Of a stretch of 20,382 bases of DNA, positions 1 through 13,154 are shown piece by piece (the first letter of the stretch is position 1; each line of letters starts with the position of its first letter). Origin of the DNA: an uncultured archaeon. Its GTDB lineage: Archaea > Asgardarchaeota > Lokiarchaeia > Sigyniarchaeales > SOKP01. The position numbers and the translations under genes were made by a program. The notes below the pieces were generated by a model that worked only from the letters and a program-made list of their open reading frames with translations, had not been told where the DNA came from and did no database searches. The stretch is taken from assembly GCA_964447495.1 (NCBI GenBank), contig CAYUTF010000059.1:1-20382 (forward strand), read 5' to 3'.

Positions 1-95
1 TCGTATTCAATATTAGGATACTGTTTATCTAAAATTGCCATTAATTTTCGTTCCCTATTGTCAATTATTAAGTAAACCTTGTTTTTTTCTGACAT
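1..95 (-). CDS. 5' end of a probable ERCC4-domain (XPF/Mus81/Hef-like) endonuclease, running off the window
   Basis: Not in the ORF track. Manual translation from ATG at 95 gives MSEKNKVYLIIDNRERKLMAILDKQYPNIEY..., open to the edge. hhhDxRE (LIIDNRE) matches the first motif of ERCC4 domains. Only 31 codons are visible. Confidence 0.6.
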   Translation of the reverse strand, partial: MSEKNKVYLIIDNRERKLMAILDKQYPNIEY

Positions 96-166
96 TCTAA
101 TCAAAAAACCTTATTATGGTATTAAATTTTTCAAAATATGCTAATTAGATATATATTATAATCATT

Positions 167-190
167 TAAAAATAAAAAAATAAAGGGAAA
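167..190 (-). terminator. T-rich putative archaeal terminator after the extended CPBP frame
   Basis: The minus strand reads TTTCCCTTTA followed by long T runs right after TAA at 192, which supports 192 rather than 282 as the gene end. Confidence 0.45.
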
Positions 191-191
191 T

Positions 192-1004
192 TTAGTTTAG
201 TGATGTGATTTTTACCATTCTTTTAGGATAGTAAGCGAAAATAATTATGATTATTACCAATAGAGTGAGAAAAAAGCTCATTCAACGTCCAAGATCTGAG
301 ATCCAATAGGGAAATATAGCTCCCGAAACATTATTCACAGTATGAAGAATCATTGTCGCTAACACGCTTCCATTTGTATTATGATATATCCAAGTGTAAA
401 TTATTGAAGAGATCGTAATGATTAAGAGATCTTGATAAATAGGGATAACTTCTTGAGTGGTACCTGCAATAAAATGGAGGGGTAAATGCCATATTGCCCA
501 GATAATTCCAACAAATAACCCTGAAATCACCATATTCCATTTATATTGAAATCTTTCAAGCAAGTATCCCCGCCATCCAAATTCTTCTGCTAAAGGGCCA
601 CCGGTGAAAAAGATAATTAGTAAAACGGGAAAAAATTTTGTAAAAGGGAGAGAATATGAAAGTATTGTTGGTCCCTCAATAATCAGTACTACTAATAAAG
701 AGAGAAAAGAGATAATTGGACCAATTAATAGGATTGGTAACCACCAGATTTTTCGAAAGTGATGGTTAATTCCTTTTTTTAACAATGTTTTTATTCCACT
801 TTTCCCTAAAGTCGCTCCAGTAACAAGTATCGATGATATAGTTGGGCCAAAGACTGCGAAGTTGCTAAAAAACAATAACAAAGGATCAATTTCAAAGCCA
901 AATGTATTTAAAACTTGAGGCAATCACAATAACCAAGACCACATAAAAGTAAGAATAATAAATAGAAAGAGATTTCTGAATTCCAAATCTTTTGTTTCGT
1001 TCAA
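192..1004 (-). CDS. CPBP (CAAX protease/Abi) family intramembrane glutamic protease, 270 codons with two in-frame TGA codons (recoded gene or pseudogene)
   Basis: Motifs EEFGWRG, WAIWH and HTVNN are intact. The frame extends upstream of the track ORF through TGA 926-924 to TTG 1004 (MNETKDLEFRNLFLFIILTFMWSWLL*LPQ). It extends downstream through TGA 284-282 to TAA 194-192 (SDLGR*MSFFLTLLVIIIIIFAYYPKRMVKITSLN). Each extension adds a transmembrane-like helix. Confidence 0.8.
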
Positions 1005-1137
1005 AATTTATCTATTCAAAATTAATAATTTAAGGAGAGAAGCGATGTTAAAATTTTTTTTTATTTTTCATTTACATAATAAAGCTTTTTAATACTTGAA
1101 ATTGCCAAAATATGACTCAGAACTAGGGTAATCTCCT

Positions 1138-1641
1138 TTATTTTGGTTCAATGGCTCTATTTCGAAGAAAATTGATAATTTTTTTTCCGGAATATAGTCG
1201 ATTGTGAATTAAAATAAAAATTAAAATCACTATTCCGGTTATTTCTGTAATAAGTACGATGGGATCGTTAAATAGGCTATATAACCATCCCCCAAGGGGA
1301 TCTTCAACATAAATAAAGTCATACGGAATGAAAGGAAAGAAAAATGGAATCTCTGGTAAATCTAAAATCAGATGGATCATATTACCAATAAAGAAAGGAA
1401 ATGAAATCAATAGATTTCCCTTGGTTATAAGGTGTATAACTAATGAACTAATTATTACAAACAATAAAGTATGGGAGATTCCTCTTCCGGAGCCCATATT
1501 CAGAAACATAAGCGTTTTATCGATGATATCTGGCATTAAGGCTCCGATTATTAAAGCAAACCTATTGAATGAATATTTACGTGTAATAAAAGGGATTTCA
1601 AAGATAAGCAGAGGGAGTGCAACATGAAAAATAGGGAAAAT
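1138..1641 (-). CDS. Membrane-bound metal-dependent hydrolase (YdjM/DUF457-like), about 167 aa, probable ATT start
   Basis: Motifs GALMPDIIDK, GRGISHTL and HLILD. The frame is open upstream of ATG 1536 to ATT 1641 (IFPIFHVALPLLIFEIPFITRKYSFNRFALIIGALMPD), which restores the N-terminal His typical of the family. GAGGTGA lies 6 nt upstream of the ATT. Confidence 0.75.
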   Translation of the reverse strand: MFPIFHVALPLLIFEIPFITRKYSFNRFALIIGALMPDIIDKTLMFLNMGSGRGISHTLLFVIISSLVIHLITKGNLLISFPFFIGNMIHLILDLPEIPFFFPFIPYDFIYVEDPLGGWLYSLFNDPIVLITEITGIVILIFILIHNRLYSGKKIINFLRNRAIEPK

Positions 1642-1647
1642 AAAGGC

Positions 1648-1654
1648 TCACCTC
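1648..1654 (-). promoter_or_regulatory. Shine-Dalgarno sequence GAGGTGA for the hydrolase gene
   Basis: Near-consensus archaeal SD, overlapping the TAG of the upstream small gene and 6 nt from the in-frame ATT at 1641. Confidence 0.7.
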
Positions 1655-1794
1655 TAAAAACCATAGATCCAACGGATTAAATTGATGATTTCAGGTAAAA
1701 AGTAGATAAGTAGCAATATAATCACAAATTCTATTGAAATTTTTAATGCTCGTTTAATCAAATATGGATATGAAACCTGTTTTTCCTCAGCCAT
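1654..1794 (-). CDS. Small single-pass membrane protein, 46 aa, unknown function
   Basis: Below the track cutoff. Translation: MAEEKQVSYPYLIKRALKISIEFVIILLLIYFLPEIINLIRWIYGF*. It fills the gap between aroA' (17 nt) and the hydrolase (12 nt) on the same strand and has one hydrophobic helix. Confidence 0.7.
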   Translation of the reverse strand: MAEEKQVSYPYLIKRALKISIEFVIILLLIYFLPEIINLIRWIYGF

Positions 1795-1811
1795 AAGTCC
1801 CAAATTATATT

Positions 1812-2615
1812 TTATTCTTTAAAATTAAATTCTTTTTGAACTTCATCGAGCGTATAATTATGATGAACTATTTTAGAAAGAGCGCATACCAGTTTAGTTG
1901 GATCTTCTGCTTGAAATACATTGCGTCCAAAAGCAACTCCTGCACCACCTGCTTGAATAGAATCATATACGACTTGTAATAGTTCAGGGACAGTATCCAT
2001 TTTTGGTCCACCTGCAATAATAACAGGAATTGAGACACTTTTTACAATATATTTAAAGCTATCAATATCACCTGTATAATTTGTTTTTACGATATCTGCC
2101 CCCAGTTCTGCCCCTACTCTCACTGCTATATTGACAACATCAGCATCATTTTCATTTTGGATTTTTCTTCCTCGTGGATATATCATTGCTATTAATGGTA
2201 CACCCCACTCTCGCGAAGCTTCAACAACATTATGAGCGTCCCTGAGCATCTCTGGTTCCTCATCAGCTCCAATATTAATATGAATTGATACGGCATCAGC
2301 CCCCATTTTCAAAGCACGTTCCACTGAGCATACTAATACCTTTCTATCAGAGTGTGGCGTCAGATTGGTTGCTCCTGATAAGTGAATGATAAGCCCAATA
2401 TCCCTCCCATATTTTCTATGACCTACTCCGACCATTCCTGAATGCATTAATACGGCATTTGCCCCTCCTTTAGCTACTTTATCAACCATCTCAGCCATAT
2501 TTTCTAATCCCTTAATTGATCCCATTGTTAACCCGTGATCCATAGGGACTATAATCGTTCTCCTACTTTGCCTATCAAGAATTCGTTCTAACCGAATATT
2601 CTTACCTAAATTCAT
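1812..2615 (-). CDS. aroA': 2-amino-3,7-dideoxy-D-threo-hept-6-ulosonate synthase (archaeal class I DhnA-type aldolase family)
   Basis: Motifs IIVPMDHG, GADAVSIHIN, YPRG, ELGADIVKTNY (Schiff-base Lys), VIIAGGPK and GRNVFQ. The N-terminus GKNIRLERI is typical of the MJ0400-like subgroup. An FBP-aldolase paralog cannot be fully excluded. Confidence 0.8.
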   Translation of the reverse strand: MNLGKNIRLERILDRQSRRTIIVPMDHGLTMGSIKGLENMAEMVDKVAKGGANAVLMHSGMVGVGHRKYGRDIGLIIHLSGATNLTPHSDRKVLVCSVERALKMGADAVSIHINIGADEEPEMLRDAHNVVEASREWGVPLIAMIYPRGRKIQNENDADVVNIAVRVGAELGADIVKTNYTGDIDSFKYIVKSVSIPVIIAGGPKMDTVPELLQVVYDSIQAGGAGVAFGRNVFQAEDPTKLVCALSKIVHHNYTLDEVQKEFNFKE

Positions 2616-2791
2616 TTTCTCTTTGACAAAAATTCATTATATTTGAATTAATCATATTAAATGAGAGTACCCATATAAAATTATATATGAAATTAGAGTT
2701 GAGTCTTTAACATGGTCTTCGGAGGGTTGCTGATCTACTTATCTTGAGAATACATTCTACTAAATTCTAAAGAATCATATTTCACACATTA

Positions 2792-4201
2792 TTACCCAAT
2801 TTTTTTCTTTATTGATTTCCTCTTCGTAAAATAGATCAAAGATATCATAATGATTATTGTAAAAAGTAAGTAATAATTTCCAAATGGAATAGCTGTTGCT
2901 CCATTCCCAGGAATACGACTGTCTACTCTTGCTATAAGGTACCAATTGTCTCCATTTCCTGCTTGAAACACAACCACTTCTCGATATCCATATAAAGTCG
3001 AAGTTGAAATAAATGCGGATTTTTCAATGCTCCCGTTGAATACTTTAATATCTGTCCAATTTGTAGGCACCCAAAATTTAAGATAATTGTAAGAATCTAT
3101 TCTCGAATCGAAACTATCAATCTTTTCATTGATGGAAGCGTTCCAAAGAACTAGATCTGGTTCAAGGATCTCAGAATTAGTATTCGCTTTTAAATCTGTT
3201 TTTGTGTAATTGATTTGAGCCTTAGTAATATCACAAGAAAGATCCCACCAATCTGCGGATAATTCAAATTCTAATTGACCTGATGGATTTATATACTCTT
3301 CATTACTTATCCAAAATCCTTTATTCTCATAACTAATATCACTTACATTTGTACCATTTATTTTTAGATTTAGATCAGAAGGTTTTGGTGTGCTATTTTC
3401 AGGATATAAATCGACTATTAAGCCCAAATCATTAGATGTAAGTTCTGGGAAGGAACCAAAAAGTCTCCAGATAATGCTATCATATTCTCCATTACTGCCA
3501 TAGTGCCAATATCCCTGCATATTAGACTGACAACTAAGTTTTATGAAGAATGTATTGTTATACGTTTTTTCTGTATCAAGGTAAATATGCCAATTTGTAA
3601 TATTCTCCCAACTCATGGTTGCATGGTCAACATTATAAATAACTCTCGTTGATGGAACAATACTTACGTTATATTTAATATACCCTCCTGAAAATGTCGC
3701 ATTATATACATCAAAAAAAAAATCTTGATCTCCTGTTGAATCTTCACTAATTAAAACTGAAACATTATCAAGATAACAATTTTCTTTGACTTGAAATGAT
3801 GCTAATCTTGCAACCACATAGAGTTCATGTTTAGCAGCTTGAATTTCCTCATCCTCAATTACTAGCGTTTTATTTGGAGCAAAAATATTTTCAATTTGAA
3901 TTTTAGTTCTACTCGAATTAAATGTTGGTTCAGTTGGGCATGGTAGAGTAAAGCTATCTGATTCGCTAAGATTTGAAAATTGAATTAGTCCAGGGCTTAC
4001 ATAAGATTGGTGAAGAGTTATATTTAATAGTTCACCAGCTTCTGCGGTCCTAACGGAATCATATAAGTATATCTTTTCTTGATTATTAATTACTAGCTTA
4101 CTAAACAATAAGTTGATATTTAACCCTATTAAGATTATACCAAACGCTAGTAGAAGAAATCTAAAACTGAGAAATAATTTTGATTTACAATTGAATTTCA
4201 T
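2792..4201 (-). CDS. Secreted/surface glycoprotein with a Loki-CTERM-like C-terminal sorting signal
   Basis: N-terminal hydrophobic helix, many N-x-S/T sequons and a beta-rich body. The C-terminus IPFGNYYLLFTIIIMISLIYFTKRKSIKKK has the motif + TM + basic cluster layout of Loki-CTERM. Confidence 0.8.
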   Translation of the reverse strand: MKFNCKSKLFLSFRFLLLAFGIILIGLNINLLFSKLVINNQEKIYLYDSVRTAEAGELLNITLHQSYVSPGLIQFSNLSESDSFTLPCPTEPTFNSSRTKIQIENIFAPNKTLVIEDEEIQAAKHELYVVARLASFQVKENCYLDNVSVLISEDSTGDQDFFFDVYNATFSGGYIKYNVSIVPSTRVIYNVDHATMSWENITNWHIYLDTEKTYNNTFFIKLSCQSNMQGYWHYGSNGEYDSIIWRLFGSFPELTSNDLGLIVDLYPENSTPKPSDLNLKINGTNVSDISYENKGFWISNEEYINPSGQLEFELSADWWDLSCDITKAQINYTKTDLKANTNSEILEPDLVLWNASINEKIDSFDSRIDSYNYLKFWVPTNWTDIKVFNGSIEKSAFISTSTLYGYREVVVFQAGNGDNWYLIARVDSRIPGNGATAIPFGNYYLLFTIIIMISLIYFTKRKSIKKKIG

Positions 4202-4287
4202 ATAAATAAAATTATTGATAATTTAGTATTTAAAACTTTATTAATGAAACTTTCTCCCCTTTAGTCGATAACTTTATCTTTTTTTAA

Positions 4288-5865
4288 TTACCACGGTCTT
4301 CTAATAGTGGTTGGTCTACTCATTGAAGCTTTAGTAGGATAATCGACATTATAATGAATTCCTCGACTTTCCTTTCTGGATATCGCACTTACAATTATCA
4401 GTTTTGCTACAGTTGCTAAGTTTCTTAATTCAACTAAATTTTTCTCAATTTTAAAATCCCAGTAATATTGGTTAATCTCATCAAGAAGTAAATTGATTCT
4501 TTTTTTCGCTCGCTGTAAACGTAAGTCTGTACGGACAATTCCAACATAGTTCCACATAAAGCGGCGTATCTCATCCCAATTCTGGGTAATCACAACAGCT
4601 TCCGTTGAGGGAACAGCATGTCCTGGCTCCCATTCCTTAAATTCATTAACTTTCAGTTCTTTAGCCTTTTTTGCAAGAGTTTTAGCACATTCATGAGCAC
4701 AGACTAATCCTTCTAATAAAGAATTACTTGCTAATCGATTAGCTCCATGTAATCCCGTGCAGGACGATTCTCCAATCGTATATAGATTTTTTACTTTTGT
4801 AGAGCCATCCACCTTGACAAGTACACCTCCACAGCTATAATGAGCTGCGGGAACAACTGGTATTGGTTCTTTCGTAATATCAATGCTAAATTGCTTACAT
4901 TGATCATAAACCCCTGGAAAGTGACTTTTAATAAAATCAGGGCTTTTATATGAAGCAATATCTAATAGCACGTGATCCTCTCCGGTACGCTTAAGTTCTG
5001 CATCAATAGCTCGTGATACAATATCTCTCGGTGCTAAATCTTTTAAAGGATGATATTTTTGCATAAACGCATTCCCTTTAATATCTTTTAAAACTGCCCC
5101 TTCTCCTCTCATTGATTCTGTTATTAAAAAGGATTTTGCAAAGGGGTGATAGAGGCAAGTAGGATGAAATTGATAAAACTCCATATTTGCAATAATTGCT
5201 CCAGCACGATATGCCATTGCAATTCCATCCCCTGAGGCAACATCGGGGTTTGTTGTATAAAGATAAATCTTACCAGCACCTCCAGTCGCTAAGATTGTGG
5301 ATTTGGCAGAAATATTGTAAATTTCTTCGCTTTTTTGATCTAAAACATACGCTCCATCACATCTAAAATTATTACAGAATAAATTGATCGCGCACCAATT
5401 TTCTTTAATTTGAAGGTTTGGAATCTTTTTAACTTTTTCGATGAGTTTAAGCTCTACATTTTGTCCCGTTAAGTCATTTACATGAAGGATTCTTCTTTCA
5501 GTATGGCCTCCTTCCTTTCCAAGATCAAACTCCCCCTCATTATTCCTTGAGAATTCAACTCCCATCTCAATTAATTGATCAATTCTTTCAGGTGCCTGCG
5601 ATATTATCAACCTTACAACTTCTTCATTGCACAATCCATCCCCGGCAATTAATGTATCTTGAATATGTTTCTCAAAATTATCATTTTTGTTACGTACACA
5701 TGCAATTCCCCCTTGAGCATAATAAGTATTGCATTCAGAAAGCTTTTCCTTGGTAAGTAATAAAATATCTTCTTTGGGAGCCATTTCTGCTAAATTAATT
5801 GCTAAAGATAGGCCAGAAACCCCTCCCCCGATTATTAAGAAGTCAGTTTTAAGTTTTAATGAAAT
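4288..5865 (-). CDS. nadB: L-aspartate oxidase (NAD biosynthesis), about 525 aa, true start upstream of the track ATG
   Basis: Motifs NTYYAQGGIA, EGGHTERRILH, QFHPT, LAPRDIVSRA, PAAHY, GLHGANRLASNSLLEG and ESRGIHY. The FAD-binding loop TDFLIIGGGVSGL (5847-5809) lies upstream of ATG 5784. The only near-cognate start before the in-frame TGA at 5874-5872 that keeps the N-terminal strand is ATT 5865. Confidence 0.93.
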   Translation of the reverse strand: MSLKLKTDFLIIGGGVSGLSLAINLAEMAPKEDILLLTKEKLSECNTYYAQGGIACVRNKNDNFEKHIQDTLIAGDGLCNEEVVRLIISQAPERIDQLIEMGVEFSRNNEGEFDLGKEGGHTERRILHVNDLTGQNVELKLIEKVKKIPNLQIKENWCAINLFCNNFRCDGAYVLDQKSEEIYNISAKSTILATGGAGKIYLYTTNPDVASGDGIAMAYRAGAIIANMEFYQFHPTCLYHPFAKSFLITESMRGEGAVLKDIKGNAFMQKYHPLKDLAPRDIVSRAIDAELKRTGEDHVLLDIASYKSPDFIKSHFPGVYDQCKQFSIDITKEPIPVVPAAHYSCGGVLVKVDGSTKVKNLYTIGESSCTGLHGANRLASNSLLEGLVCAHECAKTLAKKAKELKVNEFKEWEPGHAVPSTEAVVITQNWDEIRRFMWNYVGIVRTDLRLQRAKKRINLLLDEINQYYWDFKIEKNLVELRNLATVAKLIIVSAISRKESRGIHYNVDYPTKASMSRPTTIRRPW

Positions 5866-5880
5866 CTTCTTTCAAACCCC

Positions 5881-5907
5881 ATATATTTATAAAAATATCT
5901 TAAAATA
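5881..5907. promoter_or_regulatory. AT-rich divergent promoter region with TATA-like elements (nadB / phosphatase)
   Basis: ATATATTTATAAAAATATCTTAAAATA lies between divergent genes. TTTATAAA is a palindromic TATA-like octamer. Confidence 0.4.
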
Positions 5908-5987
5908 CCAAAATGAAATTATTTTTTTATATCTTTTTGAATATTCTAATAATTTTTTTTAGATGTCTACATTTTAAGTCTTATATT

Positions 5988-6482
5988 ATGCCTAAAATCA
6001 AATATATCCTCTTTTTATGTTCTGGAAATACATGTAGATCCCCTTTTGCTGAATATTATGCAAAGTTCCTCCAACAAACAAAATATCGAGATGAACTAAA
6101 AGATGTAAAGTTCGATTCTGCAGGAGTATATCATTACTATGAACAACCTCAAGAGGGTACATTAAAGTACCTACAAACGAAAGGAATAGACATCAAAGAT
6201 TTCAAAGCGAAAGAAGTAGATGAAGACTTAGTTAAAAATCAGGATTTAATCTTGGGATTTGAAAGAAAATGGCATATTAATAAACTAAAAAGAAGGTTTA
6301 AACATTTGAAAAATCTTGGAGATAAACTCTATCTATTGAGAGAATTTGCAGGATTTCAGAGAGATAATGAAATTCCAGATCCTTTTTATTTAAAAGAGAA
6401 AGAATATAATGCTATCCTGAAAAAAATTGAAGATGCTGTAGAAAAAACCATCGAAAAAGTTATTGAAATAAATAAAGAATAG
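5988..6482 (+). CDS. Low-molecular-weight phosphatase (LMW-PTP/YwlE fold), 164 aa
   Basis: P-loop LFLCSGNTCRSPFAE, DSAG and general-acid loop IPDPFY. The likely start is ATG 5988 (MPKIKYILF); the upstream extension in the track is low-complexity sequence. Confidence 0.9.
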   Translation: MPKIKYILFLCSGNTCRSPFAEYYAKFLQQTKYRDELKDVKFDSAGVYHYYEQPQEGTLKYLQTKGIDIKDFKAKEVDEDLVKNQDLILGFERKWHINKLKRRFKHLKNLGDKLYLLREFAGFQRDNEIPDPFYLKEKEYNAILKKIEDAVEKTIEKVIEINKE

Positions 6483-6485
6483 GAG

Positions 6486-6944
6486 TTATGTTCCAATCAA
6501 ATCAGCATATTTTTGGTTGAAGTACTTTTCCACTAAATATTTTGTATCATCAAAGGGAGTTACATTTCCAACAAATGATTTTAGCTCTTTTTCATAAGTT
6601 GCTCCAAAATCTTTTGAAAACGCATCTAGTTTTTTTGTTAATATCGGTAAATCAAGTGATGCGATTAATGTTGTAATATGATACTTTCCATATGAGAAAT
6701 ATAGATAATTTCCTTCCTTATCAATCTTCCTCAACCATTTTTTACTCTGGGTAATTTCTGATATTATCTTCAACACTCCAGTTAATGCACCTGAAATAAC
6801 ATTCTCGTCTAACCTTGAAGGCGTTTCATTTCCAATTTGTCTAAATTTTTGATCATATAAACAAACGCTATTCTTACGAAATATGAAAAGTGAGATAATG
6901 ACTGAAGCCCAATCTTTTTCTTTAGAGATAAGAATCTCTTTCAT
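6486..6944 (-). CDS. Longin/roadblock-like domain protein, possibly the 3' remnant of a longer gene
   Basis: Pattern LFIFRKNSVCLY...DENVISGALTGV...EIT...YFSYGKY...KKLDAFSKDF...FVGNVTPF resembles the longin-like C-terminal domains of Asgard proteins. The 5' end abuts an oppositely oriented OsmC-like fragment with no room for a promoter. Confidence 0.6.
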   Translation of the reverse strand: MKEILISKEKDWASVIISLFIFRKNSVCLYDQKFRQIGNETPSRLDENVISGALTGVLKIISEITQSKKWLRKIDKEGNYLYFSYGKYHITTLIASLDLPILTKKLDAFSKDFGATYEKELKSFVGNVTPFDDTKYLVEKYFNQKYADLIGT

Positions 6945-7293
6945 TGACCTAACAACGGGTTTTGGGATTGAGGATGGAATTGATGCCGTAAAAAATTTTA
7001 ATTTGGAATTAACAGTGGAAAGTGATGCAAATTTAAAAGACCTTAAGGATATTCTCGAAGATACGAAAAGACGCTGCTTTTGTATGTACTGTATTCAGAC
7101 TCCCATCATACCGAAGATTGAAATGATAAAAGAGTTCTCAAAGGAAGAAGAAGAACTCGTTCACTTCATCTGTCCCACATCTTTTAAGCAATCAATGGTA
7201 TTTCTTGATGATAATACACCTGTCTGTCAAGAATGCGGCACAACTGGGTTTTTTGTGCGAAATCCTGAAACACAAAAGGTCTCTCTCAAATAA
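6943..7293 (+). pseudogene. Chimeric remnant: C-terminal half of an OsmC-like protein fused in frame to a degenerate Zn-ribbon
   Basis: IDLTTGFGIEDGIDAVKNFNLELTVESDANLKDLKDILEDTKRRCFCMYCIQTPI resembles an OsmC/Ohr C-terminal half. It is followed by CPTS-x13-CQECG. The first 20 codons of the track ORF are antisense to the longin-like gene. Confidence 0.5.
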
Positions 7294-7351
7294 AAATTAT
7301 CTATCAAAATCAATTCTAATAATGGACTAATAAAAGAGATATGTGAAAAAA

Positions 7352-7573
7352 ATGTCAGAAGAATGGCCTTATGAACCGAAAGATAAGCAATATATAAAAA
7401 ACCTTGAAACAGATGTAGAAAAGTTAAAAACTCAGTTATATGATACACTTTTAAATTCAAATAGAGTAGTAGGAGAAATGCAGAAGCTCCAGAATCAACT
7501 TAATGCGTGTCAAATAGAGAATTCTAAATTAAAATCACAAATTGAGACACTAAAGAAGGCATTGGAAAAATAA
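7352..7573 (+). CDS. Small coiled-coil protein, 73 aa
   Basis: MSEEWPYEPKDKQYIKNLETDVEKLKTQLYDT...LQNQLNACQIENSKLKSQIETLKKALEK shows a heptad Leu/Ile pattern. It is 38 nt upstream of the second phosphatase. Confidence 0.75.
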   Translation: MSEEWPYEPKDKQYIKNLETDVEKLKTQLYDTLLNSNRVVGEMQKLQNQLNACQIENSKLKSQIETLKKALEK

Positions 7574-7611
7574 ACAAATAATTAATTAGGTTTACAATAT
7601 TTGATTATTCG

Positions 7612-8094
7612 ATGAGAATCAAGAAAATTCTTTTCGTATGTTTAGGTAATACTGCCCGATCTCCTGCTGCTGAATTTCTTGCTCGTCATTACGCTAAGAT
7701 GTATGGAATAGATTTGCTCGTTCAAAGTGCTGGTTTTATCAATGCGTTTTCATATATGCAACCTGAATCACAGGAATATTTAAATGAGAAAGGAATAAAC
7801 AATTCTGATTTTAGACCTCAATTAATTAATCGGAACTTACTTGGAAATCAGGATTTAATAATTACAATGGAACAATCCCATGTTGATGATATTGTAAAGA
7901 AATATTCTGAGCTCGAAAACATAAATAACATAACTTTTACTTTAAAAGAATTTAATGGCGAAAGTTATGATTTAGATATAATCGACCCCTACTACACAAG
8001 TAAAGCGATGTACCAAAATGTTCTCAAAACTATTGATGAAAATGTTGAGAAACTGATAAAAAAAGTAAAAGAAATTAATATGAATTATGACTAA
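7612..8094 (+). CDS. Low-molecular-weight phosphatase (LMW-PTP/YwlE fold), paralog of 5988..6482
   Basis: P-loop LFVCLGNTARSPAAE, QSAG, DLIITME and IIDPYY. Confidence 0.9.
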   Translation: MRIKKILFVCLGNTARSPAAEFLARHYAKMYGIDLLVQSAGFINAFSYMQPESQEYLNEKGINNSDFRPQLINRNLLGNQDLIITMEQSHVDDIVKKYSELENINNITFTLKEFNGESYDLDIIDPYYTSKAMYQNVLKTIDENVEKLIKKVKEINMNYD

Positions 8095-8187
8095 TTTGTT
8101 TCTGATTTATCAGGCAAATCATTTAAAATTACATTACTGTCGAAATTATATAAAAATATAAATATAGTTTTTTAGAATAGATATGTA

Positions 8188-8715
8188 ATGAATGAGATAA
8201 CAATTAACAATACTGTTATCGAACTTTTTATAGGAGATTTAACACAGTCAGAATACGATGCCATCGTAATTCCAACTAATTCAAGATTGTTACCCAGTGG
8301 AGACTTAAGATGCAAAGTTGTAAGAGAAGCAGGCTCAACGGTCCAAGTGGAATGCAATGTAATTGCCCAGAAGATTTCAAACATTCCAGTGGGAAGTGCA
8401 GTAATTACCTCTGGAGGAAATTTAAAAGCTAAATATATAATCCATGCACGGGCAGGTCACGATGGAAAAAAATTAATGTTAGCAATTTGGAATAGTTTAA
8501 AGATAGCTGATAAACATAGTATTAAATCTTTGGTATTTCCACCACTTTCTAAGGACGTGATCGGTTTTACAACAAAAAAAAGTAGTCAGATTATGCTTCC
8601 TACGATTAAAAAATACGTTACTGAAAAAACTAGCTCCATTAACAACATCTCTATATGTTTGGAGACATTACCTGATTATAAGGAATTTGAAACAGTACTA
8701 GATAAAATTGTCTAA
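8188..8715 (+). CDS. Macro domain protein (divergent MacroD/YmdB-like)
   Basis: Motifs GDLT...DAIV, GSAVITSGGNLKAKYIIHA and SIKSLVFP. The NAAN and GGGV motifs are replaced by IPTN and SGDL. Confidence 0.85.
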   Translation: MNEITINNTVIELFIGDLTQSEYDAIVIPTNSRLLPSGDLRCKVVREAGSTVQVECNVIAQKISNIPVGSAVITSGGNLKAKYIIHARAGHDGKKLMLAIWNSLKIADKHSIKSLVFPPLSKDVIGFTTKKSSQIMLPTIKKYVTEKTSSINNISICLETLPDYKEFETVLDKIV

Positions 8716-8826
8716 AGATAGAAATCTTTGTTACTTATTCTTAATATTAAATTTTTTAAAGTTTCAGTTCATTATTAAATCATATTAAACATAACTATTT
8801 TTCTTAAAGGAAATAGGGATAGGATT

Positions 8827-9348
8827 GTGAGTATAGAAGAAATTAATAATTTGATTAAAAGTGATCCATCTAAAATTAATTCACTAAAAGGCTTTGAAAT
8901 TATTAGTGAATCGATGGTTTATAAAATATTAGATTTATTCGGTAAGAATGCCCTTCTTTCAATGTTATTCCAGATAGGAGCGGGACCTGGAGAATTAATT
9001 GCTAAGAGGATCAAAGAAAGTTATGGAAGAGAAGAATTTGAGATCCTTGAGGCTCTCATTGTTTTAATGAGAGAATTAAAGGAATTCTACTCCTTAAAAA
9101 TAATAAGTGCTGATGAAGATGATGAAAAGGTCGTATTAGTTGTTGAAAATCAGTGCTTTTTGAGAGAACCTATCAAACATAGAAGTAAATTACAATTTGG
9201 CAAAGCATTCTGTAGAATAAATAAAGGGTATTTCGAAACAGCTTTTAAAAATTTAATTGGAAAAAAAATTAGTAAGATTGAAATTAATTTTCTTCATAAT
9301 GATGAGGAAAAAGACGTTTGTGTAGAAAAATTAATTTTTTATAAATAA
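8827..9348 (+). CDS. V4R-like (V4R/HNOB/Bet3 superfamily) ligand-binding protein
   Basis: Helical N-terminus with LFQIGAGPGELIA, then the three-Cys pattern NQCFLRE, AFCRINKGYFETAF and DVCVE typical of V4R. GTG start. Confidence 0.65.
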   Translation: MSIEEINNLIKSDPSKINSLKGFEIISESMVYKILDLFGKNALLSMLFQIGAGPGELIAKRIKESYGREEFEILEALIVLMRELKEFYSLKIISADEDDEKVVLVVENQCFLREPIKHRSKLQFGKAFCRINKGYFETAFKNLIGKKISKIEINFLHNDEEKDVCVEKLIFYK

Positions 9349-9356
9349 AAAATAAC

Positions 9357-10481
9357 TTAACATCTTTCAGGATTTAATTTACAAAATCTTAAGGAAGACA
9401 ACACTTCTTCTTCTCCGATAAGTCCAAGTACATAATCATCTGAATCATCTTTTACCACAACTAAATGAAGCTTATTATTCTCCTTCATTAAGTTTTTAAG
9501 TGCATCCTTTCCAGAACCTTTTTCAGAGATTGTCGGAAATTGATTGATGGATCTCATAGCATATCCCACAATAAAAGTGTCTCTCTTCTCAATAGGAATT
9601 TTTTTGATATCATCTATGTGTATTATTCCCTCGATTTGTCCATTTCTTATCACCGGGAAATAATCTTTTTTATAGACCAAAAAATAATATTTCAATGCTT
9701 CTTCAACAGTTAAATTAAATGGCACCTCTAATCTTGGCATACTTATCATTTCTTTTACATGTAACTTAGATAAGGATAATTCATTAAGAGTTTGAATATA
9801 TGATTGTTTTGTTTGACTATTTAAAAAAAATCCGATTATAATAAACCAAAAGCCACTAAAAAATCCAAATAGAAATGTTTGCAAAATTCCATATCCTATC
9901 AAACCATAGGCGAAAAAACTACCTACTTGAGAAGCAATTCGTGTAGCAGAAACAATATCCTTTCTTCTATGCCAGAGAATAGCTCGTAGTATCCTCCCTC
10001 CATCAATAGGAAAAGCAGGTAGAAGGTTAAATAAACCCAGACCTATATTTGAAATCCCTGAATAAAGTAATGTCACCGCCAATAGAGCCGGCAATTGAAA
10101 GGGAATGCCATAATAAGTTAACAAAAATATACCGCCAATCAAAAGACTGGTTAAAGGACCCACAATTGTTATTATGATTTCACTTTTAGGATTCTTAGGG
10201 TCTTCTTCTATTTTTGATGCCCCACCGAATAAATAGAGCTCAATTTCAGTAACCTTTAAACCATATTTTTGCGCAACGGCGGAATGTGCAATTTCATGTC
10301 CTAAGACTGAAGCAAGAATTACTAAACCATTAATTAATCCAACGACGATCAATTCAATAATTGTTGCCCCGATTACTATACTCGCATAAAAGCTTGCTGC
10401 ATAAAATCCGATCAATCCTACTATTATCAGAGTACTTAAACTTACTTTAATGTTAAATCCATATATTTTAGCTATTTTCAC
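9357..10481 (-). CDS. Site-2 protease (M50 family) with C-terminal CBS domain pair
   Basis: HEIAH zinc motif, LFGGAS, VGPLTS and FNLLPAFPIDGGR, multiple TM helices and a CBS-like tail. GTG start with GAGGT 7 nt upstream. Confidence 0.93.
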   Translation of the reverse strand: MKIAKIYGFNIKVSLSTLIIVGLIGFYAASFYASIVIGATIIELIVVGLINGLVILASVLGHEIAHSAVAQKYGLKVTEIELYLFGGASKIEEDPKNPKSEIIITIVGPLTSLLIGGIFLLTYYGIPFQLPALLAVTLLYSGISNIGLGLFNLLPAFPIDGGRILRAILWHRRKDIVSATRIASQVGSFFAYGLIGYGILQTFLFGFFSGFWFIIIGFFLNSQTKQSYIQTLNELSLSKLHVKEMISMPRLEVPFNLTVEEALKYYFLVYKKDYFPVIRNGQIEGIIHIDDIKKIPIEKRDTFIVGYAMRSINQFPTISEKGSGKDALKNLMKENNKLHLVVVKDDSDDYVLGLIGEEEVLSSLRFCKLNPERC

Positions 10482-10798
10482 AATTTTTACCTCTCATAAC
10501 TAATTATAATTTCTTACTTCTATCCATATATCACAGAGTTGCCCTTAAATTACTTCACATTAATAATACAAAACAAGGATGTTCTTAAAATTATAATTTT
10601 TAAGAGTTTGTGGTGATTAGGTTTTAAATAAAAACATAGAAAATTTTCTTGAATATTAGAAATATGAAGAATTTTTTGAATTAGTTCATGGGTTTTTTCG
10701 TTTCGGTAAATGAAATGTTAAAATTAAAAAAAAAGATATGATTTAATTATTTGTTACTTAATTTGTTAATAAAATTTAATGAGGATGAAAACAAAAAA

Positions 10799-11986
10799 AT
10801 GGTTGACGTAAAGAATGTTTTAGTACTTGGGGCTGGTTTAATGGGCAGCGGGATTGCTCAAGTTTCACTCATGGCGGGTTATAATGTGAAACTTGTGGAC
10901 GTTAAAGATGAATTTGTAGATAATGGATACTCAAAAATTGAAGAAGGTTTGAGAAAATTAGAATCTAAAAAAGCTTTAGGTGAGGGTGTAACTGCTGACA
11001 GTATCTTGGCTAAATGTCAAAAATCAATTGATTTAGCTTCAGCTGTGAAAGATGTTGACATTGTTATTGAAGCGGTCATAGAAAAAATGGACGTTAAACA
11101 GAAAGTATGTAAAACTGTTATGGATAATGGTTCTTCTCATGTTATATTCGCTTCAAACACTTCTACGATGAGTATAACGGAAATTGGAAAAAATAGCGGC
11201 GCACCAGAACGTGTATGTGGCATGCATTTCTTTAATCCTGTACCATTAATGAGATGCATTGAAGTTATTAAAGGTGCGGCTACTTCCGATCAGACATTTA
11301 ACACTGCTATGGAAGTTGCAGGAAAATTCCCATGCTTAAGAGGTGATAGATATATTGCTCCAGTATTAAAAGATCGACCTGGATTTATTGTGAATCGAAT
11401 GAATTCTCCAGTTATTATCTATTTACACTGGGCATTTGATGAAGCAGAAAAACGAGGTATTCCATGGGAACGTTTAGATGCTGATGCAGGTGGTAAAATG
11501 CCTATGCCACCTTGTGTTTTGACAGATTTTACTGGGATTGACACAAACTTTCATATTATGAATTATTATAAAGAAACTTTATCTCCTGATTTTGAACCAG
11601 GAAAAGTAATAACAGATTTATACAAGAAAGGAGATTTAGGTCAAAAAACAGGAAGAGGTTTTTATGACTGGAGCAAAGGAAGAGATGCGATAATGGTCAA
11701 AATTAAAAATGCAGAACCAGCAGGTATCTTTGACTTAAATACACTTTTTGCAATAATGCTAAATGAGGGTTGTCGTATCTTAGATGAGGGTATCGCAAGT
11801 GGCTTTAAAGTCATCGACGAGGCTAATATGGCGGGAATGAATGCTCCAGGACCCTTTGGTGCTGGGAAAAAGAATTATGCTGAATGGTCTAAGATTTTAG
11901 AAGATTTAGCAAATAAGACCGGTAAAAAATATTTAAAACCAATTGAATTGATGAAATCTGGAGAATTTTCGAAGATGCGCAAATAA
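10799..11986 (+). CDS. 3-hydroxyacyl-CoA dehydrogenase with duplicated C-terminal domain, 395 aa
   Basis: Motifs VLGAGLMGSGIA, IEAVIE, ASNTST, GMHFFNP, PGFIVNR and LGQKTGRGFY. The likely start is ATG 10799, with GAGGATGA upstream. Confidence 0.93.
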   Translation: MVDVKNVLVLGAGLMGSGIAQVSLMAGYNVKLVDVKDEFVDNGYSKIEEGLRKLESKKALGEGVTADSILAKCQKSIDLASAVKDVDIVIEAVIEKMDVKQKVCKTVMDNGSSHVIFASNTSTMSITEIGKNSGAPERVCGMHFFNPVPLMRCIEVIKGAATSDQTFNTAMEVAGKFPCLRGDRYIAPVLKDRPGFIVNRMNSPVIIYLHWAFDEAEKRGIPWERLDADAGGKMPMPPCVLTDFTGIDTNFHIMNYYKETLSPDFEPGKVITDLYKKGDLGQKTGRGFYDWSKGRDAIMVKIKNAEPAGIFDLNTLFAIMLNEGCRILDEGIASGFKVIDEANMAGMNAPGPFGAGKKNYAEWSKILEDLANKTGKKYLKPIELMKSGEFSKMRK

Positions 11987-12004
11987 ATACCTTTTATTAA
12001 ATTA

Positions 12005-12038
12005 TTTACTTTATCTACTTTTTTTTATTTTTACTTTT
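12005..12038 (+). terminator. T-rich putative terminator after the dehydrogenase
   Basis: Long oligo-T runs 20-50 nt after the stop codon. Confidence 0.5.
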
Positions 12039-12200
12039 AAATGCACATTATCCTTGTTTTTAGTTAATTTCAATTTTATAAGATTGAAATTTTAAAACTT
12101 TTTAATTTGTAAAAACCTATTACTACTTAATCATTTTTAGGATAAATTAAACAAATCTTACAAAAAAAAAAAATTTAAATAAGGTAAAGGATGAATTAAA

Positions 12201-13154
12201 ATGGTAGAAGAACCAAAGTTTGAACATATTAAAATAGAATGGCCTACAGCTCGAGATGATCAAGGAAACGTAATAAGACAGGGAACTATTGATGGCAACT
12301 ACGCTGTTATCGTTCTTAATCGACCAGATAGACTCAATGCTTTAACAGAACAAACTGTAGCAGAAATCTCTCAAGCACTTCGTATCTTACAGTTAGATGG
12401 ATCAGTACGAGCAGTAGTTCTAAGAGGAACTAAGGATTTCACTAAAAAACCTGCATTTTCTGCAGGAGCTGATTTAGCAGCAATGGTGGATCCGAGACTT
12501 AAAATGAACGTTCCTATGCATATGAGTATGGCAATGAGAACGAGACATAGGGATTATGATGAGATGGAACAATTTTCCAAACCTTTAATTGCTGCTGTGG
12601 ATGGATTCGCTTTAGGCGGAGGTCTTGAACTGGTATTAGCTTGTGATATTGTTATTGCTAGTGATAGAGCGATCTTTGGAGTACCAGAAGTCCATCGAGG
12701 GATATTTCCCGCTAATGGAGGGGTTACTCGCCTAGCTGCAAGAGTTGGGCTCAATAGAGCGTTAAGAGCTGCTTTTTTTGGAGAACAATTCGATGCGAAA
12801 ACTATGCTTGAATGGGGTTTAGTATCTTGGATAGCTCCAGCTGGGGAAGAATTTGAAAAATTGGTCCATGAAAAAGCGAAATGGTTAGGTGATGCCGCTA
12901 CTACAGCGTTATTTATAATAAAGAAATGTGTTAAGTTTGGTACAAGATATCCCCAATTAGGTTTAATGATGGAGCAACTTGGTTTTGGAATAAATAGCGC
13001 AAGTTTTGATTCTAAAGAAGGCATAGCAGCATTCAATAGAAAAGTGCGTTGTCCCGTATGTGGGGGAAAAGGAAAGATGGAAGATGATAGTATATGTCCT
13101 AACTGTAAAGGAAGTAAACGCATCAAGGACACTCCCCATTTTAAAGGAACATAA
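12201..13154 (+). CDS. Enoyl-CoA hydratase/isomerase (crotonase family) with an inserted DnaJ-type zinc finger
   Basis: Motifs LNRPDRLNAL, AFSAGADL, KPLIAAVDGFALGGGLEL and FGVPEVHRGIFP, with both catalytic Glu present. CPVCGGKG...CPNCKGSK lies just before the terminal PHFKG. Confidence 0.92.
   Translation: MVEEPKFEHIKIEWPTARDDQGNVIRQGTIDGNYAVIVLNRPDRLNALTEQTVAEISQALRILQLDGSVRAVVLRGTKDFTKKPAFSAGADLAAMVDPRLKMNVPMHMSMAMRTRHRDYDEMEQFSKPLIAAVDGFALGGGLELVLACDIVIASDRAIFGVPEVHRGIFPANGGVTRLAARVGLNRALRAAFFGEQFDAKTMLEWGLVSWIAPAGEEFEKLVHEKAKWLGDAATTALFIIKKCVKFGTRYPQLGLMMEQLGFGINSASFDSKEGIAAFNRKVRCPVCGGKGKMEDDSICPNCKGSKRIKDTPHFKGT

Follow-up and report, generated by a model that had tools for sequence, protein, structure and literature searches.

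The window analysed here, the whole of contig C59 (20,382 nucleotides), belongs to an Asgard archaeal genome of 3.81 Mb in 223 contigs with 31.4% GC. A single frame of 270 codons (192-1004, minus strand), which lies 191 nt from a contig end, encodes a CPBP/Rce1-like protease and runs from TTG 1004 to TAA 194-192 with no frameshift. Two in-frame TGA codons are its sole breaks. The first (924-926, minus strand, codon 27) lies between FMWSWLL and LPQ at the end of the first transmembrane (TM) helix, in the motif WSWLL(W)LP. The second (282-284, minus strand, codon 241) lies between SDLGR and MSFF, in the motif GR(W), ahead of the last TM helix. An in-frame TAA two codons upstream leaves TTG 1004 as the sole possible start, and this TTG lines up with the Met of the closest homologue. 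Apart from the TGA sites the frame has 10 Trp codons, all TGG. A T-rich tract 3' of the TAA (about 168-190, minus strand) resembles a terminator in sequence and may act as one. The original prediction had described one frame from TTG 1004 to TAA 192 broken only by the two TGAs and free of frameshifts, with a T-tract after the TAA and 10 further Trp codons of the TGG type; re-reading of the frame and a codon count bear out each of these points. The two TGAs enclose an open frame of 213 codons (282-923, minus strand) which starts at a TTG directly after the first TGA and is without the first and last TM helices. Gene callers and the public protein set give only this fragment, as a protein of 213 aa (P0002). 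Chance alone would leave the flanks open with a probability of about 1%, estimated from 31% GC; the real evidence is carried by homology.

When both TGAs are read through, the product scores 60.6 bits with Pfam PF02517 (Rce1-like; cut-off 22.4; E=1.8e-16), and a six-frame search of the genome recovered the same CPBP domain at 65.3 bits. The 270-codon product has 7845 full-length relatives at E<=1e-3, whose alignments reach, for example, from query 5 to 267, and this homology extends across both TGA sites. The best E value (1e-107) is to a relative of 271 aa, and the nearest protein in the large database is 63% identical. EExxxR and HxxxN are given as family-defining motifs, and MmRce1 of Methanococcus maripaludis as the structural prototype, in the accessible part of the source (PMC11980579). 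The catalytic motifs had been described as intact and are so: EExxxR (E140, E141 and R145; 570-587, minus strand), the second conserved His motif W169..W172-H173 (486-500, minus strand) and HxxxN (H221 and N225; 330-344, minus strand). In alignment A1, comprising the product and 38 homologues (39 sequences), E140, E141, R145, H173 and H221 are invariant and N225 nearly so. A wider alignment of 245 homologues retains the two Glu and the Arg of EExxxR in 242, 239 and 244 sequences, H173 in 241, H221 in 242 and N225 in 225. The frame therefore resembles the CPBP/Rce1-like glutamic endopeptidases in EExxxR, the conserved His and HxxxN, and has the length and helix layout of the full-length relatives (250-290 aa), which keep the first and last helices. 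It differs from them in being broken by two TGAs. The TM helix expected on each flank is indeed present, with the first and last helices lying outside the 213-codon middle frame; the stops cut both off, leaving the gene short of the full set of TM helices of PF02517, and the encoded product is no full family member.

Both stops fall at positions where Trp is found in homologues, to differing extents. Column 27 is W in 199 of the 245 homologues, W24 is present in 226 and P29 in 176, in agreement with the original statement that the first helix of many CPBP proteins ends in SWxxWxP. At column 241 no more than 23 of the 245 have W (65 have L and 75 a gap), but all seven of the closest homologues do (51-62% identity). 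The Trp that had been suggested for the second site thus holds for the nearest relatives, and for the TGG of a sister strain described below, but not across the family. At the DNA level the codons were read in 91 homologous loci (80 metagenome and 11 related-genome loci): TGG stands at column 27 in 70 of 80 aligned loci and at column 241 in 15 of 43, and TGA was absent from all five Trp columns examined across the 91 loci. The metagenome loci were retrieved with A1, and the best of the 80 kept is only 43% identical; a pattern-based search of metagenome contigs with P0001 gave 53 matches with no relative among them. Among same-genus genomes, 18 of the 24 others searched gave some match, the best 45% identical, and the CPBP gene is patchy within the genus.

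Part of window positions 1-2600 is present in 18 public runs, all but one of them salt-marsh metagenomes of 2019-2020 and none listed as an RNA run. Logan contigs from four runs other than the likely source (X2-X5) were compared with positions 1-1400 of the window. The X3 contigs (186-349 and 680-1098) and the X2 contig (864-1072) have 0 differences from the window. Both TGAs are found again in assemblies from other runs and are therefore genuine and no base-calling slip, contrary to one of the explanations offered at the outset. A 33-nt piece (149-181) also matched other contigs; it is low-complexity AT sequence, unique in the genome at up to 5 mismatches.

A sister strain, 95-99% alike, is present in runs X4 and X5. 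On the plus strand the sister has 282 T>C, that is TGA>TGG (Trp) at codon 241, and the ancestral state of the second site was TGG. The sister also lacks a segment of 763 bp (329-1091), with a single T in its place. The joint (328>1092) is spanned by an X5 contig of 977 nt, with >255 nt on each side, and by an X4 contig with a 46-nt side. The missing segment takes codons 1-226 together with 87 bp upstream, and a C-terminal coding remnant is left in the sister; the event is therefore a loss of sequence by the sister rather than a gain by the window's strain. Between sister and window the 137-nt remnant has 10 differences: one is the stop/Trp site, 3 are synonymous and 6 are non-synonymous, with I>S (twice) and T>N among the latter; the comparison stretch 1092-1400 has 3 differences in 309 nt, and both are small numbers. 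The radical changes appear to lie mostly on the sister's side; they speak for a decaying remnant but need not mean that the window's copy is decaying. Logan contig depth is low (about 3-6); the same differences are found in two runs, which may belong to one campaign. Since the sister strain has deleted 763 bp of the gene and its upstream region, the gene is dispensable, and it is being lost in this population.

The setting of the gene in a metagenome-assembled genome of 223 contigs, so near a contig end, would fit a sequencing or assembly error; recent acquisition from a donor in which TGA encodes Trp was weighed alongside. Taken together these origins are highly improbable. Recurrence of both TGAs in other runs' contigs argues against error. 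Against a code-4 donor, which the original prediction had listed, stand the other 10 Trp codons (all TGG), the homologous loci sampled, which are without TGA at the Trp columns examined, and a gene GC content of 32.8% that is close to that of the window (31.2%) and of the genome (31.4%). The codon score of the CPBP gene is low and similar to that of the adjoining small membrane gene. The neighbouring genes are ordinary chromosomal genes, all with a TAA terminator and none with an in-frame TGA; by eye they include putative aldolase, aspartate-oxidase-like flavoprotein, phosphatase, site-2-protease-like and acyl-CoA dehydrogenase/hydratase types.

We propose that 192-1004 is a young nonsense pseudogene of a CPBP/Rce1-like protease gene, one of 11 CPBP-domain genes in this genome, and give this reading a probability of roughly 85%. 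Two G>A transitions would have turned TGG (Trp) codons into TGA stops. The first stop possibly arose before the two strains split; the second stop and the sister's loss of 763 bp, with the promoter region and codons 1-226, would have followed the split independently. The first site was probably TGG as well in the ancestor; it lies within the segment deleted in the sister and so is not directly polarised. A gene with these two TGAs would not be expected to yield a functional protein. Of the explanations put forward originally, the young pseudogene with two TGG>TGA changes gains most directly, from the sister's TGG at the second site and from the deletion of most of the gene. The evidence can be summarised as (i) a stop where a close relative has a sense codon, as seen at the second site; and (ii) tolerated loss of the gene, as seen in the 763-bp deletion in two runs and in the best match of no more than 45% identity in the other same-genus genomes searched. 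In both respects the locus behaves as ordinary prokaryotic nonsense pseudogenes do, with stops at sense codons of relatives and a close strain that has the sense codon and a deletion. It departs from them in that neither frameshift nor motif loss is yet visible and in that both hits are TGG>TGA. The intact motifs, the two intact flanking TM helices and the lack of a frameshift in the window's copy are counterpoints to decay. The pseudogene, if it is one, is very young.

A further counterpoint is the nature of the lesions, which are both TGG>TGA, with no TAG or other nonsense type. The ancestral gene would have had 12 Trp codons in 270 (4.4%), compared with 4851 in 459692 codons (1.06%) in long ORFs of the genome, and 24 of its 131 single-base nonsense paths start at TGG as G>A transitions. 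In a mutation model with kappa of 2-6 and a GC>AT bias of 1-3, the probability that a nonsense hit is TGG>TGA is 0.15-0.32 and that both are is 0.02-0.10 (2-10%); the probability that both nonsense hits fall at Trp codons is 0.09-0.40. Two TGG>TGA hits are therefore mildly unusual and not anomalous, for a pattern that was picked after the fact.

The 213-codon frame between the stops could be a functional shortened protein, made from TTG 923 to TGA 282 and without the first and last TM helices. Such a product has a TTG in the right place, directly after the first TGA, contains all three catalytic motifs and is what the gene callers report (P0002). However, among the 120 matches listed (148-473 aa) only P0002 itself has these ends, and no other shortened near-identical form was found among the listed database matches. 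The full-length relatives of 250-290 aa keep both helices, loss of the first helix would be predicted to change the topology of a polytopic membrane protein, and the gene is deleted in the sister strain. We regard a functional short form as very unlikely.

A leaky nonsense allele would also account for a frame that is intact save for two stops, both of them on Trp columns. On this account the gene is transcribed and the near-cognate tRNA-Trp(CCA) sometimes reads UGA, giving a low level of the 270-aa protease and a hypomorph rather than a null allele. In other organisms tRNA-Trp is the near-cognate tRNA that usually reads UGA. Positive evidence for leakage at this locus is lacking, and both stops must be passed, so that the yield would be the product of two small rates. 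The bases directly after the stops are T and A, not C, and a C after the stop is the leakiest context. Any function that is left would also be dispensable, given that the gene is deleted in the sister strain. We therefore consider a leaky allele unlikely. A shade less likely still is that the allele corrects itself, the original Trp being inserted at both TGAs so that a trickle of wild-type CPBP protease is kept. If true, this could be an early step toward tolerated UGA ambiguity in an archaeon that recodes UGA for selenocysteine (Sec).

Genome-wide or incipient decoding of TGA as Trp, in the manner of code 4, was examined against the rest of the genome. TGA is a common terminator: among 2864 open frames of at least 150 codons, 1922 end in TAA, 519 (18%) in TGA and 423 in TAG. 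Aragorn identified a single tRNA-Trp, with anticodon CCA (C55), and a single bona fide tRNA-Sec, with anticodon UCA (C19). A second 'tRNA-SeC' call, on C4, was rejected as a false positive, having a 128-nt intron, 41% GC and weak stems. No UCA anticodon besides that of tRNA-Sec was found among 58 Rfam tRNA matches, of which those that aragorn had missed were inspected; the tRNA set is incomplete in that no Asn or Tyr tRNA was recognised. The gene for the release factor aRF1 on C155 is truncated at the end of its contig; its product has NIKS, YHCASEF (YxCxxxF) and GGQ, which we take to be the usual aRF1 motifs. Six-frame searches gave 11 CPBP, 45 ABC_tran and 38 radical-SAM domain matches, and none of these 94 has an internal stop.

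A number of tRNA genes were noted in passing. About 20 lie within 13 kb on C80 (about 10-13035), including Ile-UAU, Arg-UCU/CCU, Lys-UUU, two Glu-UUC and four Ser genes, none with a UCA anticodon; for several amino acids these are the only copies that aragorn found. This may be where most of the genome's tRNA genes are clustered, or else an array carried by a virus or mobile element. Two partial tRNA-like sequences, a 5' part with anticodon UGU (C1:22980-23041, plus strand) and a 3' part of Leu-UAA type (C191:2103-2168, minus strand), may be att-site remnants or contig-edge fragments. The genome also carries four actin-family genes, the best scoring 442 bits over the whole Actin model; together with tRNA-Sec and the multi-TGA genes aligned to Cys, they fit an Asgard archaeon of Lokiarchaeia-like type.

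Split genes were sought by a scan for same-frame ORF pairs parted by one stop, with paralogue support and at least 30 codons on each side; its sensitivity is limited and it leaves the CPBP gene itself unscored. At the two TGA sites of the CPBP gene, its distant paralogues showed I, G or M in the raw scan. The raw scan also produced 10 TGA sites aligned to W, with no TAG or TAA sites of this kind. These were rejected as Ser/Pro/Ile-rich antisense shadow frames and disappeared after a codon-usage filter. A similar case occurs in the window, where a Ser/Pro-rich open frame of 192 aa (12554-13132, minus strand) is antisense to an enoyl-CoA-hydratase-like gene (12201-13154, plus strand); it is a shadow ORF, the same type of artefact as the false TGA-to-W signal of the raw scan. 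After the coding-potential filter the same-frame pairs numbered 125 for TAA, 51 for TGA and 31 for TAG, and with the Sec genes set aside these counts closely track terminator usage. Of the TGA sites spanned by paralogue alignments after filtering, 11 of 13 align to Cys and 0 of 13 to Trp.

Decoding of TGA as Trp in this genome could draw on the two sites in the CPBP gene and on the 10 W-aligned sites of the raw scan, the latter being the shadow frames lost on filtering. Everything else is against it: TGA ends 18% of long open frames, tRNA-Trp(UCA) was not found, the aRF1 motifs are canonical, none of the 94 domain matches contains an internal stop and the sister strain has TGG. Three of the checks proposed originally, namely a tRNA able to read UGA as Trp, an altered aRF1 and further TGAs at Trp columns in the genome, gave a negative answer in the tRNA set, the release factor, and the domain matches and filtered paralogue scan, respectively. 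The suggestion of TGA read-through or recoding to Trp, with which these checks were concerned, finds no footing. What had been named beforehand as counting against recoding is also what was observed: a close relative has TGG at the second site, and in-frame TGA at Trp columns did not turn up elsewhere in the genome in the domain matches and filtered scan. UGA reassignment of the code 4/25 type is known from Mycoplasmatales, Gracilibacteria and others. Those systems share with this locus an in-frame TGA on Trp columns; here, in contrast, there are two sites in one gene, a UCA tRNA-Trp was not found, TGA is a common terminator and the release factor is canonical. An alternative genetic code is not established for Archaea, as far as the accessible part of a preprint goes (bioRxiv 10.1101/2024.09.30.615893). 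On the same partial basis, TGA=Trp here would be the first UGA sense reassignment reported in Archaea (bioRxiv 10.1101/2024.09.30.615893). We consider it extremely improbable.

A second TGA-containing CPBP sequence was considered in another genome of the genus (G023, contig C9, L015 637-1557). This is a CPBP paralogue in which the column of the TGA is Gly in 4 of 4 orthologues, which excludes it as a second Trp case and adds to the evidence against TGA=Trp decoding. It has no in-frame ATG, and a nearby ATG in another frame sits beside a T/A homopolymer run. These features would fit either CPBP paralogues decaying more than once in the genus or indels introduced by assembly.

Selenocysteine insertion at both TGAs would be a natural thought in a genome with tRNA-Sec and with multi-TGA genes aligned to Cys. 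The latter loci, with two or more Cys-aligned TGAs each and up to 13 paralogues, were observed on C5 (~47.8-49.9 kb, minus strand) and C25 (~19.0-21.2 kb, minus strand), with further examples on C51 (2.7-4.3 kb, plus strand) and C126 (3.4-5.1 kb, minus strand). They look like the multi-Sec HdrA/FrhD-type selenoprotein clusters described for Lokiarchaeia in the accessible part of the literature (PMC11227280). The host genome uses the standard code plus selenocysteine. The CPBP gene shares with Asgard selenoproteins an in-frame TGA in a genome with tRNA-Sec; the TGAs of those proteins align to Cys, as in the filtered paralogue scan, and are SECIS-dependent, whereas those of the CPBP gene are at columns that are Trp, not Cys, in homologues, with no Rfam SECIS match. 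The search covered positions 1-1300 of the window at E<=10, and Asgard SECIS-like models may lie outside Rfam. The 3' region of the gene is roughly 100 nt of AT-rich sequence, and the sub-threshold Rfam matches in 1-1300 (SL1, 25.8 bits against 75, and MIR8562) were rejected as chance. The same partially accessible source names five widespread Asgard selenoprotein families, HdrA, FrhD, FrhA, SelD and Prx-like, without CPBP among them, and its main text lacks the word CAAX (PMC11227280). We see next to no likelihood of selenocysteine at these two positions.

Elsewhere in the genome the split-gene scan yielded two ORF pairs of interest, both parted by TAA. One (C31, minus strand, ~1891 on the reverse-complement scale) has the stop aligned to Q of a paralogue that is 85% identical; in the other (C18, minus strand, ~18510) it is aligned to K of a paralogue that is 61% identical. 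Both are candidate nonsense pseudogenes. With the broken G023 paralogue they show that nonsense-type breaks are found in other genes of this genome and genus, in favour of the pseudogene reading of the CPBP gene.

The evidence points to routine gene decay caught early, one strain having taken two nonsense hits and its sister a deletion. The called ORF of 213 aa is best labelled a pseudogene fragment. AT-rich genomes with Trp-rich membrane genes offer a large target for TGG>TGA changes, and caution is called for when in-frame TGA codons are met at Trp columns. Strain-level contigs can resolve such cases fast.
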